A stretch of DNA of 64,000 nucleotides, from the NCBI RefSeq assembly GCF_055900595.2, contig NZ_CM148325.1; one strand, 5' to 3'. A program made the translations under genes and the position numbers. Below are positions 54,580 through 59,704 of this stretch, one piece after another; within the stretch, counting starts at the first letter, position 1; every line of letters begins with the position of its first letter. Under the pieces are notes generated by a model. That model was given only the letters and a program-made list of their open reading frames with translations, was not told the origin of the DNA and searched no databases.

Positions 54580-57090
54580 ATGAGCCATCACCACACGCAC
54601 CTGGCGTACCCGTGGAACGCCCCGCTGCCGGTTATTGATCCTGAGACATTCGGCAGAGCATTACCGCAGAAGCCAACCGCATTACAACGGGCAATCCGTG
54701 ACTACCTCACCGAAGACATTCGCACTGAGGCCCGGCTGGATGAAGAAACCGTGGCCTTCCTGACAACCACGGACAAAGGTAAGCAAATTAATTCACACCT
54801 TCACCGGGACGAAGAGCGGCAGATAAGGCTGGATAAGCTGGCACGACACAGACGCGAAAATCCGCCAACGGCGGTATCGGAGGCGATAGCCGAACTTCGC
54901 ACCCTGCCCTCGTTTCTTGCCAGTGTGTTGATCCGTGATCTGGCACGACTGAACCGGAAACAGCAAAGTGCCCGCAGTGAAGGTGTAAAAAACAACAGCG
55001 CATACGTGGCCGATAATTTCGTTCGCCGTGGACTGCGTGCGCGCCTGAAACGTATTGAAAGGGTTAACGACCGCTTTGCAACGCCGGCATTCAAAACCAC
55101 CGTCGTGCGCCATCGCCTTGAAGAACTGCTCACACTGCCGCAACTCACCCGTGACGAAATCCAGCGCATCGCCACACTGACAGCCCAGGCATTCGCCGCA
55201 GAATTTGAACGCATATGTGATGAAGTTCTTGAACGGACAGGCAAGGATAATGACAGCCCGGTTATCTGGCTGCTGGCCTACCAGAAGGTGGCACGCACAG
55301 CCTTAATTCTGGGCATGGTCCCGCCATACTGGCCGGAACTCGAAATCAGGCACAACCGACGCACACCGCCGGACCCTGAACGGGTTCCGGGTGCGGTACT
55401 GCGCATCACCTGCGCGACCTGGTGGAACAACCAGTTACGCCACGTCGCCGATCTCTGGCGGGAGGAGTTACTGCGCGCCGCCGGCAGAGTGTCACGTAAA
55501 CAATCCCCCTATATCAGCCATGAGTCACTACTGGAGTTCCGCGAGAAGCGCCAGCGCACCTGTGACTTTCTCAAAAGCTGGGATATTGAAAACGAAGACG
55601 GCGAGCGCCTGAGTCTGGAGGACGTGTACTGGGCTGGCCTGGGTAATCCACGCAACCGCCGCAATGAAATGATGGTCTGCGTCAGAGGGATGGAGATGGT
55701 GGCCGAATTACGGGCTGACGTCGCATTCTTCATCACAGTAACCACCCCTTCCCGCTTTCACAGCGTGAACGAGAACGGCAGCCTGAACCCGAAATACAAC
55801 GGTGCCACAGTACGAGATGCCAGTGATTATCTGGTTTACGACTTCTTCGCAGCCGTAAGAAAAAAAATAAAAAAAGAGGGGCTGGGCTGGTACGGCGTGC
55901 GAACCGCTGAGCCACACCATGACGGCACGCCACACTGGCATATGCTGGTATTCACTTCCCCGGAGAACGCAGAGCGCATCATCGAAATTATGCGCGAAGC
56001 AGCAATTAAATCAGATCGCCACGAACTGGGGGACGATATTTCACCGCGCTTTAAATGCGAGAAGATAGACCCGGAAAAAGGCACACCGGCAAGCTATATC
56101 GCAACCTATATCGGTAAGAACCTGGACGCCAGCGCTTTCCACAACAATGATCCGAAAACCGGAAAACCTTACGTTGATGAGGAATCCGGGAAAACCATGG
56201 CGGAAACCGTGGAGAACGCCATTGCCTGGGCAAGCCTTCACCGCATCCGTCAGTTCCAGTTTTTCGGCATTCCGCCCCGCCAGGTATGGCGTGAACTCCG
56301 CCGCCTTGCAAGCCAGATGGAGCGCAACCCGGCATCACCGAAGCACCTCGATCATGACGATATTGACGCCATTATGGCTGCCGCAGATGTGGGATGTTTT
56401 GCCACCTACATCATGAAACAGGGTGGTGTGCTCATTCCGCGCAACCAGTATCTGGTCCGCACCGCATACGAAACCGCAGACGAAGCCAACGACTACGGTG
56501 AACTCCCTCAACGTATCTACGGAATCTGCGCCCCGTCGCTCGGAGAGCGGTACACCATATGCACCCATCCGGACGAGTGGAAACTGGTTAAAAAAGAAAC
56601 AATACCAGACAACCGCACGGGCGAGGGTTTTGACCTTCAGGGCGACCCCGTCGCCCCTTGGACTCGTGGCAATAACTGTCCCCGGGATGAAAAAACAGAC
56701 AATCACGGACCAGAAAACAGGCAGGACCCCGGACGACTGACGCTTCCCGAAGAGAACCTGGAAAGCTGGCTGAATACGTTAAGCAGGGGCGATCGGAGAA
56801 AACTGCGTAATCAGATTAAAAATCAGCCGTCGGGCGCAAAAACCGGACAAAACGACACCACACCGGCATCTGACACCCCTGTAAGGGTGGGGATTGTCGT
56901 GCCTGCGGATACCGCGACGGACACGCAAATCGCCCGCGAACTTGATGCGCTGGGTGTGCAGTTGCCTGACGCGGCCATCATCTCCGTGCGTAACGGTGCC
57001 CGTGTGCGTCTGGATAACGGGGGAACAGCGTACTGGGATGAGTCAGCCCGTCACATCATCACAGAGCAGCCAGTGGAGGCGGGAGCATGA
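54580..57090 (+). CDS. P2 gpA-like rolling-circle replication initiator (HUH endonuclease)
   Basis: 836-aa ORF containing HWHMLVF (HUH-type motif); position between the early genes and the packaging genes as in P2. Confidence 0.88.
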   Translation: MSHHHTHLAYPWNAPLPVIDPETFGRALPQKPTALQRAIRDYLTEDIRTEARLDEETVAFLTTTDKGKQINSHLHRDEERQIRLDKLARHRRENPPTAVSEAIAELRTLPSFLASVLIRDLARLNRKQQSARSEGVKNNSAYVADNFVRRGLRARLKRIERVNDRFATPAFKTTVVRHRLEELLTLPQLTRDEIQRIATLTAQAFAAEFERICDEVLERTGKDNDSPVIWLLAYQKVARTALILGMVPPYWPELEIRHNRRTPPDPERVPGAVLRITCATWWNNQLRHVADLWREELLRAAGRVSRKQSPYISHESLLEFREKRQRTCDFLKSWDIENEDGERLSLEDVYWAGLGNPRNRRNEMMVCVRGMEMVAELRADVAFFITVTTPSRFHSVNENGSLNPKYNGATVRDASDYLVYDFFAAVRKKIKKEGLGWYGVRTAEPHHDGTPHWHMLVFTSPENAERIIEIMREAAIKSDRHELGDDISPRFKCEKIDPEKGTPASYIATYIGKNLDASAFHNNDPKTGKPYVDEESGKTMAETVENAIAWASLHRIRQFQFFGIPPRQVWRELRRLASQMERNPASPKHLDHDDIDAIMAAADVGCFATYIMKQGGVLIPRNQYLVRTAYETADEANDYGELPQRIYGICAPSLGERYTICTHPDEWKLVKKETIPDNRTGEGFDLQGDPVAPWTRGNNCPRDEKTDNHGPENRQDPGRLTLPEENLESWLNTLSRGDRRKLRNQIKNQPSGAKTGQNDTTPASDTPVRVGIVVPADTATDTQIARELDALGVQLPDAAIISVRNGARVRLDNGGTAYWDESARHIITEQPVEAGA

Positions 57091-57518
57091 CGCGATTTTG
57101 CTGCACCATGCAGCGCCCACAGTTTGAGGCCATCATGCGCCAGCGTATGCCGGTGCTGACACTGTTCAGGCCTGCCACAAGGCCACAACCGGGCGACGAG
57201 CTGGAAATCACGATAGTCAGCCCCGATCGCACCACGGAGACCACCATCGCCGACATACTCAACAGGCGGCCGGGCAGCGAGAGCCATAGCTGGACTGTCG
57301 TCATTCGTCCGCGCCGTTCGCCGGAGGAACCGGAGCCGTGCACGCCTGCCGGGAAAATCATGCAGAGATATCACGAAGAGCGGACACGCAGGCACAACGG
57401 CGGACTGGCCAGAACACTGAACACAGTCAATCACAAGGCCGCGCTGGCGCGAATGGTCTTTTCACCACAACGCAATTCATTCGCCAGACCAGCACAGAAC
57501 GGGAGGAAACAACAGTGA
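57087..57518 (+). CDS. hypothetical protein, translationally coupled to gpA (143 aa)
   Basis: ATG overlaps the gpA stop (ATGA) with SD GGAGG; C-terminal half is low-complexity (R/P/E-rich). Confidence 0.45.
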   Translation: MTRFCCTMQRPQFEAIMRQRMPVLTLFRPATRPQPGDELEITIVSPDRTTETTIADILNRRPGSESHSWTVVIRPRRSPEEPEPCTPAGKIMQRYHEERTRRHNGGLARTLNTVNHKAALARMVFSPQRNSFARPAQNGRKQQ

Positions 57519-57709
57519 GCAGAATATTACTTTTTCTGCTGTTTTTCGCGCCATTCGCACAATCAGCCACGCCGAACTGCGTAGCGAAAAAGAGCAACAC
57601 CGTTGTCATTGTCCAGTGTGATGACGGCACGGTAACAATCACCGACTCGAGCAAAGGAAGCGTCATTGTCTGCCGTAAAGAGAAACCCTGTCAGCGAACC
57701 GAACTTTGA
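57515..57709 (+). CDS. small secreted protein (64 aa; signal peptide plus 4-Cys mature part)
   Basis: GTG start overlapping the previous stop (GTGA), SD GGGAGG; N-terminus SRILLFLLFFAPFAQSA is a typical signal peptide; mature part has 4 Cys. Confidence 0.45.
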   Translation: MSRILLFLLFFAPFAQSATPNCVAKKSNTVVIVQCDDGTVTITDSSKGSVIVCRKEKPCQRTEL

Positions 57710-57720
57710 AGGAAAAATAT

Positions 57721-58035
57721 ATGAACAGGAAACAGAAGCAGGAACTGAAAGGCTTCTTACGTAAAGAAATTGCCAGGCTGGAAGATGTGGAATCTCAGTC
57801 ATCAGATATTCCATTCGGAATGGATATCAACGACGCCTGTATGCTCCAGGTATACCGCATAGCTCAGGCTGCACTACAGGCAAAACCGTCAGATGGACTG
57901 GTTAGAGCAGTACGTTTCTATGAACTGGTAAAGCGTGAGAATCCGCCAGTCGAAACCGGAGCATGGCAAGACGCTGTTGACTGGGTGCTCAAAGAGGCTT
58001 GTCAGGTTGTAAACACTGGCATCAAAGGAGACTGA
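57721..58035 (+). CDS. hypothetical protein (104 aa), first gene of coupled triplet
   Basis: Internal ATG of track ORF 57706..58035 (which starts at TTG) with SD AAGGA; stop is 1 nt before the next ATG. Confidence 0.5.
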   Translation: MNRKQKQELKGFLRKEIARLEDVESQSSDIPFGMDINDACMLQVYRIAQAALQAKPSDGLVRAVRFYELVKRENPPVETGAWQDAVDWVLKEACQVVNTGIKGD

Positions 58036-59134: not shown

Positions 59135-59638
59135 ATGAGCCACTTTAATGATTTATGCCAGATCAATCGTGAAGCTGAAGAAAAACGCGCTGAGGCAGCT
59201 CAAATTTTGCGGGATGAAGCGGCAAGGCTGATTGATTTCTATGAAGAATGGCTGGGGCTTCCATCCATGTACTGGGAAGACGATGATGGCGACCTGCACC
59301 GCTACGTGGAGACAGGCTTGCCATGTAAGACAGCGGCGGATTTTAGTCCTCTTTCAGTCCACAATATCGCATCTGCACCAGACAATATTTTCCGCATGGC
59401 CGTGCGAACCTGGGTTAAGTCATCTGACAGCAGCTACCCGGTAAGCGTGGTTATTGCACTTGAATTATATTCAGTAGATGCGGAACGGGTGTCTCTGAGA
59501 GTCCGGGTGGAAGACGATATTTCTGTTCGCGTATTTATCAATAAACCCAGCGAAGAAGCCTGGGGCGATGTTGTTATGCACATGAAAAAGCACATCGCTA
59601 ATCACCTGAAAAAGCGAGCGCCATCAGCACTTCGTTAA
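59135..59638 (+). CDS. hypothetical cargo protein (167 aa)
   Basis: Internal ATG of track ORF 58925..59638 (which starts at TTG) with SD AGAGGA; MSHFNDLCQINREAEEKRAEAAQILRDEAARLIDFYEEWLGLPSMYWEDDDGD..; the upstream in-frame extension may be spurious. Confidence 0.5.
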   Translation: MSHFNDLCQINREAEEKRAEAAQILRDEAARLIDFYEEWLGLPSMYWEDDDGDLHRYVETGLPCKTAADFSPLSVHNIASAPDNIFRMAVRTWVKSSDSSYPVSVVIALELYSVDAERVSLRVRVEDDISVRVFINKPSEEAWGDVVMHMKKHIANHLKKRAPSALR

Positions 59639-59656
59639 GCAGAGCTGGAGAGTCGG

Positions 59657-59679
59657 GGCATAAATTTTTTATGCCCCGG
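59657..59679. terminator. strong 10-bp-stem palindrome between cargo gene and Q
   Basis: GGGGCATAAA-TTT-TTTATGCCCC between convergent genes; no clear U-tract, so terminator function is inferred. Confidence 0.45.
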
Positions 59680-59704
59680 CGAAGCAGCAGACAAGCGAAG
59701 CGCG

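Follow-up and report, generated by a model that had tools for sequence, protein, structure and literature searches.

Does a tightly chained run of small genes between the replication gene A and the portal gene Q of a P2-like prophage encode a single new anti-phage system? The question is raised by a 2,618-bp interval at positions 57087-59704 of the 64,000-nucleotide stretch of DNA analysed here (the window; contig NZ_CM148325.1 of RefSeq assembly GCF_055900595.2). The interval holds five co-oriented open reading frames (ORF1 to ORF5), followed by a non-coding stretch and a sixth gene, ORF6 (Table 1). An earlier note, made without database searches, had proposed this content as an undescribed accessory or defence module, whose tight coupling would imply a five-protein unit of fixed stoichiometry. 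Our analysis points to a different answer: the interval is probably ordinary mosaic hotspot cargo, made up of at least four independently inherited pieces and not one system.

The window is a piece of E. coli chromosome in which the prophage adjoins rraA. The prophage carries int and the helix-turn-helix (HTH) repressor gene C on one strand and cox, the early genes and A on the other, and has P88-type structural genes (genus Xuanwuvirus, Peduoviridae). Flanking of the interval by A and Q was confirmed. This cos-proximal gpA-gpQ locus has been reported as a diversity hotspot, with 1,650 arrangements among 18,150 loci (Rousset et al. 2022, PMC9122126), and the A-Q gene content differed in every relative examined here (eight different arrangements), so that the description of the interval as a variable hotspot is well founded. 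The arrangement itself had been described before, however. Table S5A of the same study catalogues an identical arrangement in NZ_CP033635 as six "hypothetical" proteins (WP_000196517 + WP_001080487 + WP_072668117 + WP_024211219 + WP_000951718 + WP_000086827), and NZ_CP033635 was also one of the 100% matches in our genome search. None of these six accessions appears in that paper's table of tested systems (PMC9122126), and a literature search found no paper naming any of them in its text.

Distribution and independent assortment of the genes

The composite nature of the locus was most apparent from its distribution across 5,426 complete E. coli genomes. Of these, 21 carried the exact 2,618-bp interval, in copies that were at least 99.9% identical wherever they aligned, and 2,205 matched some part of it. 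Matches to ORF3 were found in 736 genomes (full length in 93), ORF4 in 665, and some part of ORF5 in 824 (full length in 22), while ORF1, ORF2 and ORF6 were found in 23, 22 and 30 genomes, respectively. For ORF4, 177 places were on plasmids, and the gene is found on plasmids of ∼95 kb. Modules of ORF3, ORF4 and ORF5 were thus present in 665-824 genomes, whereas only 21 carried the locus in full; the halves of ORF5 also occurred apart. Comparison of the A-Q interval across relatives, as proposed in the earlier note, bore out the variability of its content but showed ORF1 to ORF5 together only in 21-23 near-identical prophages, with no co-occurrence across diverged genomes. Diverged relatives of ORF1, ORF2, ORF3, ORF4 and the halves of ORF5 each sit with other partners. 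Judged from these sequence comparisons, the genes assort independently and the locus is a composite rather than a five-protein unit.

The overlaps between neighbouring genes, from which a fixed stoichiometry had been deduced, do not alter this picture. In the prophage of E7-1N7, ATGA chaining also links unrelated small genes behind A and ORF1; the tight coupling is therefore a general style of such arrays and not evidence of a complex. Two prophages with an otherwise identical locus carry an insertion sequence (IS) of the IS21 family, one in ORF3 (ISSso4-like; GF60, NZ_CP172185.1) and the other in the 5′ part of ORF6 (ISEc12-like; NRZ14408, NZ_LT599825.1), indicating that neither gene is needed to keep the prophage.

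Gene A and ORF1

In identical loci, A is labelled 'replication endonuclease' by the Prokaryotic Genome Annotation Pipeline (PGAP). The protein is 72% identical to an 842-aa GpA of other E. coli prophages (the L008 lineage) and 51% identical to GpA of P88; on these sequence identities, A is of a lineage other than P88 A. The portal protein Q is 82% identical to that of P88 and 45% identical to Q of P2. Because A and Q derive from different lineages, there is a recombination joint in or near the A-Q interval. The prophage as a whole is a hybrid, with P88-like packaging and structural genes (59705-62511) as against an A that shares only about half of its residues with the P88 protein.

ORF1 follows the ancestry of A. 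Homologs with 73% identity (P0016) lie directly after the 842-aa GpA with an identical 4-nt overlap, and the cargo downstream of them differs, consisting of an Ead_Ea22 protein, a reverse-strand 208-aa gene and Ogr. In E7-1N7, a 94% identical homolog has the same 4-nt overlap after A and is followed by another chain of small genes. The divergence of ORF1 keeps pace with that of A (73% vs 72% identity), and from these comparisons we conclude that ORF1 is part of the A replication module and travels with A.

An AlphaFold model of ORF1 consists of a small beta-barrel and a long helix, with a mean predicted local distance difference test (pLDDT) score of 81.3 and ∼90 over residues 1-70. Residues 3-75 are predicted to form an ASCH/PUA-like beta-barrel, and residues 87-124 a long basic helix. 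No Pfam match was obtained for ORF1 even at E ≤ 10, no ASCH or DUF3850 profile matched, and tblastn against 50,697 phage records gave no match at E ≤ 1e-3. ORF1 may serve the replication module in an accessory, nucleic-acid-binding role.

Mosaic composition of ORF2 to ORF5

The next four genes encode small proteins without a recognisable enzymatic domain. ORF2 matches phrog_20764 (E 4e-10) and phrog_11462 (E 1e-8). Its first ∼20 residues are hydrophobic by hydropathy and are followed by ∼45 residues with four cysteines; the signal-peptide-like N-terminus suggests that ORF2 is probably a small exported protein. A homolog with 72% identity is found in another arrangement, A-ParM-ParR-(ORF2-like)-zf-C4_ClpX.

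ORF3 combines two modules, matching phrog_26213 and phrog_660. The N-terminal module ends in RIAQAALQAKP, and the C-terminal module, encoded by the 3′ half of the gene, is common to proteins annotated as ead/Ea22-like. The whole gene is homologous to gp20 of P88 and its equivalent in PhiR44_2, which occupy the same position with ∼90% DNA identity. ORF4, together with the first 140 nt of ORF5, has 93-97% DNA identity to Shiga toxin (Stx) phages, phiV10 and phage RCS47. Stx2 phage 86 carries this DNA within its exo-xis region, flanked by an ead/Ea22-like gene on one side and a DUF551 gene on the other.

ORF5 is a recombinant of two modules, with residues 1-91 matching phrog_60, phrog_3323 and phrog_660 and residues 72-133 matching phrog_13916. 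Its N-terminal module resembles lambdoid exo-xis genes (Stx2-86 gp45), and the DNA for its C-terminal 62 aa is 97% identical to the end of a gene for a 135-aa protein in ETEC1730, within a P88-like prophage. That gene is the last before the conserved non-coding block described below, and its protein has an ORF3-like N-terminus in place of that of ORF5. PGAP annotates ORF5 as a C-terminally truncated pseudogene of which only the first 45 codons are covered. This annotation was rejected: since the reading frame is intact and alignment with homologs shows the two-module layout of the family to be kept over 133 aa, we read ORF5 as a genuine two-module protein.

When ORF3, ORF5, P88 gp20, Stx2-86 gp45 and the ETEC1730 135-aa protein were aligned, the positions common to all five clustered in a short R-IA-A-L-KP motif, where otherwise unrelated N- and C-terminal modules meet. 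From its position in these sequences, the motif may be a recombination joint at which early-gene modules are shuffled between P2-like and lambdoid phages. ORF2 to ORF5 were assembled by recombination at the boundaries of genes and modules from a P88-like pool and the lambdoid exo-xis region. Neither ORF3 nor ORF5 contains a Pfam Ead_Ea22 (PF13935) or DUF551 domain, what is shared being modules only, at the level of the DNA, and comparison with the solved structures of Ea22 and Orf63 gave no match.

A conserved non-coding block

The non-coding stretch at 58645-59134, which carries repeats, had been counted among the cargo. Alignment to related phages indicates that most of it is conserved backbone, probably cos. 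Positions 58676-59057 are 86-88% identical to P88, P884B11, 500465-2 and PhiR44_2 even though the genes to the left differ, and identity falls to ∼53% directly after 59057. In P88, P884B11 and 500465-2 the block runs directly into the hairpin that precedes Q. The position of the block matches that of cos in P2. One linear phage record begins inside the block and another begins 132 nt upstream; the record of P884B11 is cut within the block without a terminal repeat and does not decide the placement of cos. A search for the P2 19-mer cos sequence with up to three mismatches found nothing. On sequence conservation and position, 58676-59057 is probably the cos/packaging region, and would hold both cos and the recognition repeats of the terminase.

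Two sets of repeats stand out within the block. TGCACAA occurs three times at 10-nt spacing (58682, 58692 and 58702, ending at 58708), with four copies in the window, and GGATCCGT occurs twice, 11 nt apart (58752 and 58763, spanning 58752-58770). In the alignment of related phages both sets hardly vary, and they are candidate binding sites for terminase or another protein.

TGT-N12-ACA is the dyad of P2 Ogr-activated late promoters, and a match to it lies at 58857-58874, in the part of the block that precedes ORF6. P88, P884B11 and PhiR44_2 share this match and 500465-2 does not; with 15 matches in the window, its occurrence may be due to chance.

ORF6, a moron-like gene next to the portal gene

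ORF6 has been inserted after the conserved block and before the Q hairpin, and is absent from P88, P884B11 and 500465-2. PGAP places its start at an upstream TTG, giving a protein of 237 aa (58925-59638) that runs through the conserved block. Homolog alignments favour the ATG start of the 167-aa form, and the longer version was set aside.

The family, of proteins of ∼160 aa, is small and recurs in accessory positions. A profile search of 1.84 billion representative proteins returned only 31 members at E ≤ 1e-3, and tblastn against the same 50,697 phage records gave no match to ORF6 at E ≤ 1e-3. Members next to the portal gene include a 174-aa gene of PhiR44_2 (same PHROG, E 1.4e-67; hhalign probability 96%) and one in the L022 prophage. 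Genomic context was informative for four members. A 68% identical homolog (P0005) lies just before the portal gene of a P2-like prophage of Edwardsiella tarda, with a Gp49/HTH pair as its toxin-antitoxin neighbour. HicAB adjoins two others, one in the A-Q interval of a P2-like prophage (P0032) and one at the opposite end of such a prophage, past gpD and ogr (P0043). The fourth (P0036) lies between antiterminator Q and the holin of a lambdoid prophage and has no toxin-antitoxin neighbour.

The AlphaFold2 model of ORF6 comprises a helix, a seven-stranded sheet and a helix (mean pLDDT 83.6), and Foldseek located this fold in ∼25 AFDB50 clusters of uncharacterised gammaproteobacterial proteins. 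The modelled layout is suggestive of protein binding. Of the features expected of a moron, ORF6 shows insertion relative to P88, a low GC content at third codon positions (GC3, 0.47) and a terminator hairpin. Neither a promoter-like site nor any known domain or functional analogue could be identified for this gene. ORF6 is a moron-like accessory gene, the only piece of the interval laid out in this way, and is the best candidate here for a conversion or exclusion gene.

Gene anatomy and inferred expression

The sizes and overlaps of the ORFs, their individual Shine-Dalgarno (SD) sequences, the hairpin after ORF5, the repeat-bearing stretch and the 167-aa gene were all found where the earlier note had placed them (Table 1).

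Table 1. Positions in the window of the genes and non-coding features of the A-Q interval and its borders.
Feature	Position	Strand	Remarks
A	54580-57090	+	replication endonuclease, 836 aa; left hotspot border
ORF1	57087-57518	+	143 aa; ATGA overlap with A
ORF2	57515-57709	+	64 aa; GTG start
ORF3	57721-58035	+	104 aa; two-module protein
ORF4	58037-58246	+	69 aa; cysteine-rich; phrog_926, E 6.6e-37
ORF5	58243-58644	+	133 aa; recombinant two-module protein
Hairpin after ORF5	58652-58674	+	9-bp stem, 5-nt loop; AAACGCCCT/AGGGCGTTT
Conserved non-coding backbone block	58676-59057	.	by alignment to related phages
ORF6	59135-59638	+	167 aa; phrog_5091, E 3e-52
Hairpin between convergent ORF6 and Q	59655-59677	.	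GGGGCATAAA/TTTATGCCCC
Q	59705-60760	-	portal gene; right hotspot border

Based on the ORF list and the sequence, the genes are joined by ATGA or GTGA overlaps or by gaps of 1-11 nt: A and ORF1, and likewise ORF4 and ORF5, share an ATGA, ORF1 and ORF2 share a GTGA, and gaps of 11 nt and 1 nt separate ORF2 from ORF3 and ORF3 from ORF4. Purine-rich SD sequences precede every start (GGAGG, GGGAGGA, GAAGGA, AAGGAG, TGAGGA and AGAGGA for ORF1 to ORF6, respectively). Each of the six proteins matched PHROG families of unknown function (E 4e-10 to 5.6e-82) and the ORFs are therefore real, recurrent phage genes rather than chance reading frames. GC3 is 0.69 for ORF1, 0.61-0.67 for A, Q and P, and 0.40-0.55 for ORF2 to ORF6.

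The stem sequence of the hairpin after ORF5 is common to P88, and in the other two phages that reach this point its place is taken by another GC-rich hairpin; the hairpin after ORF5 is the probable end of the early transcript. The hairpin before Q is kept in four related phages that were aligned. An Rfam search of 56900-59800 gave only a sub-threshold gyrA-RNA match on the Q hairpin (22 bits, against a gathering score of 45), which was taken as chance. No promoter-like site was found on the plus strand of 56800-59800 in a crude scan for consensus matches.

Given that ORF1 to ORF5 lie on the strand of A, are coupled to it, show no promoter-like site and end at a hairpin, they would form the 3′ tail of the cox-to-A early operon. 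They would then be expected to be expressed once the phage infects or is induced, and not in the quiescent lysogen. With such early expression, an accessory role in replication for ORF1, and developmental or host- or competitor-binding roles for ORF2 to ORF5, fit better than defence of the lysogen. By analogy, the most likely functions of ORF2 to ORF5 would be modulation of the lysis-lysogeny decision, as for exo-xis genes, or binding of host or competitor proteins, possibly in counter-defence. ORF6, between the conserved block and the Q terminator, is a separate, moron-like gene.

Two further genes of the early region were noted upstream of A. A 74-aa gene annotated as a 'derepression protein', and assigned to the Derepression family (Pfam PF25738) in related loci, lies two genes upstream of A (53868-54092, plus strand); early operons of P2-like prophages do not usually contain such a gene. 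A 160-aa gene with predicted membrane helices (52276-52758, minus strand; phrog_6315, E 5e-65) opposes the otherwise co-directional cox-A region, the layout expected of a conversion gene expressed in the lysogen. It had no PADLOC match and no significant Pfam match, the best being BaxI_1 (E 0.022).

Defence searches and alternative explanations

Searches of the six proteins against PADLOC-DB 2.0 returned no family at E ≤ 0.01 (best, PDC-M28C to ORF3 at E 0.016). Neither the NCBIfam nor the PDB sequence searches of all six, nor the Pfam search of ORF1, ORF3, ORF4, ORF5 and ORF6, gave a significant match. These results agree with the earlier statement that no known defence family is represented. 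They also provide no positive evidence for a defence module, and the orientation of ORF1 to ORF5, their coupling to A and the lack of a promoter-like site are unlike the arrangement of old and tin.

A multi-subunit anti-phage system made of ORF1 to ORF5, protecting the lysogen and with coupling that fixes the subunit ratios, has in its favour the location in a defence hotspot, the tight chaining of five genes that each have their own SD, and the precedent of validated hotspot systems without known domains. We regard it as very improbable, given that the ORF3, ORF4 and ORF5 modules are found in 665-824 genomes and the whole locus in 21, that ORF1 belongs to the A module, that an unrelated array of small genes is chained in the same way, that the genes run with the early operon and are coupled to it, unlike old and tin, that no significant PADLOC match was obtained, and that an IS interrupts ORF3 in one otherwise identical prophage. 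A narrower proposal keeps ORF1 to ORF5 as unrelated early genes and assigns a lysogen-expressed function (exclusion, defence or another conversion trait) to ORF6 alone. It draws on the stand-alone insertion of ORF6, with its lower GC3, between the conserved block and the Q terminator, on a family that occupies moron or accessory slots in P2-like and lambdoid prophages with an adjoining toxin-antitoxin pair in three cases, and on a predicted fold that recurs among uncharacterised gammaproteobacterial proteins; no promoter-like site or known domain accompanies it, and we consider this proposal unlikely.

The remaining alternatives concern ORF2 to ORF5. These could be early lytic proteins for counter-defence or host takeover, acting for example to inhibit restriction or the sensors of abortive infection. 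They lack enzymatic domains, are small and either acidic or rich in cysteine, and are encoded at the end of an early operon; their modules are shared with the lambdoid early region and found on ∼95-kb plasmids. However, recognisable anti-defence genes were reported in only 28 of 1,511 P2-like elements (Moura de Sousa et al. 2026, preprint), and no structure or homology links ORF2 to ORF5 to a known inhibitor, so that we give this a low probability. Alternatively, ORF2 to ORF5 could be debris, for the most part without function, left by illegitimate and homologous recombination in a region of high turnover, as the pseudogene call and chimeric make-up of ORF5 and the IS insertions in ORF3 and ORF6 of sister prophages might suggest. 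Yet all reading frames are intact and have SDs, ORF5 retains two modules joined at a conserved motif, and hundreds of genomes retain the ORF3, ORF4 and ORF5 modules with 90-97% identity; we regard the debris explanation as unlikely.

Several points weigh against our own preference for independently inherited, mosaic cargo. The hotspot is enriched in anti-phage systems, and some of the validated hotspot systems have no recognisable domains (Rousset et al. 2022, PMC9122126). The carriers of the whole locus are at least 99% identical across it, so the comparative data alone leave room for co-selection of the combination, and the crude promoter scan could miss an internal or lysogen-active promoter. 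With respect to cos, local alignments of the block to the cos regions of P2 and 186 were not better than those to shuffled sequences. It is also conceivable, if rather unlikely, that one uncharacterised unit of the interval is a new kind of small-protein effector acting in conflicts between phages or between phage and host, by exclusion, defence or counter-defence, for which ORF6 would be the best candidate and the ORF2 to ORF5 set the alternative. If true, a small new family would be added, although nothing here predicts so. Nothing that was found singles out this already catalogued arrangement as a new system.

The mosaic-cargo reading has some consequences for how such loci are interpreted. 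ATGA/GTGA chaining within the hotspot is by itself no sign of a multi-subunit system, which removes a false lead, and a repeat-bearing spacer of 0.5 kb can be mostly phage backbone, probably cos, rather than cargo. The build of the hotspot as seen here would comprise an A-linked gene with a predicted ASCH-like fold, then two-module small genes that recombine at R-IA-A-L-KP and are exchanged with lambdoid phages, and, beyond the conserved block and next to the portal gene, a separate slot for a moron-like gene.

Comparison with known systems

Within P2 itself, the closest counterpart to ORF1 is orf91, a DUF3850 gene at the same position, with the same ATGA overlap with the end of A and a similarly small size. 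The DUF3850 family belongs to the ASCH superfamily, and ORF1 and orf91 thus have a predicted ASCH/PUA-like fold class in common. ORF1 differs in its extra basic C-terminal helix of ∼40 residues and in the lack of detectable sequence similarity (hhalign probability 0.2% against Orf91); the claim is therefore limited to the same position and fold class and does not extend to homology. Such genes are labelled "DUF3850/ASCH" in the table of Rousset et al. (PMC9122126). The hairpin between ORF6 and Q likewise has a P2 counterpart in the tQ terminator, which lies at the equivalent place. In contrast, old and tin of P2 are on the opposite strand and have their own mapped transcript starts, whereas ORF1 to ORF5 are co-directional with A and translationally coupled to it. 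Compared with hotspot cargo in general, the locus shares the A and Q borders, the position next to a probable cos, the size of ∼2.6 kb and the high turnover among relatives, but differs in having no recognisable defence gene.

P88 resembles this prophage in its structural module (represented by Q), in the conserved non-coding block and in gp20, the homolog of ORF3. Its A-Q interval contains ParM, ParR, a ClpX-type zinc finger, gp20 and others; the present locus lacks ParM/ParR and the zinc-finger gene, follows an A of another lineage, and relative to P88 has gained ORF1, ORF2, ORF4, the chimeric ORF5 and ORF6. The exo-xis (ea) region of lambda and Stx phages, whose genes are described in two reports as early-expressed modulators of lysogenisation and induction (PMC8614690, PMC3824215), consists, as here, of arrays of small overlapping genes in an early operon. 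The likeness extends to the DNA of ORF4 and of the N-terminal module of ORF5, and to the C-terminal module that ORF3 shares with ead/Ea22-like proteins; unlike the exo-xis region, the genes of the present locus lie in a P2-like phage, downstream of A.

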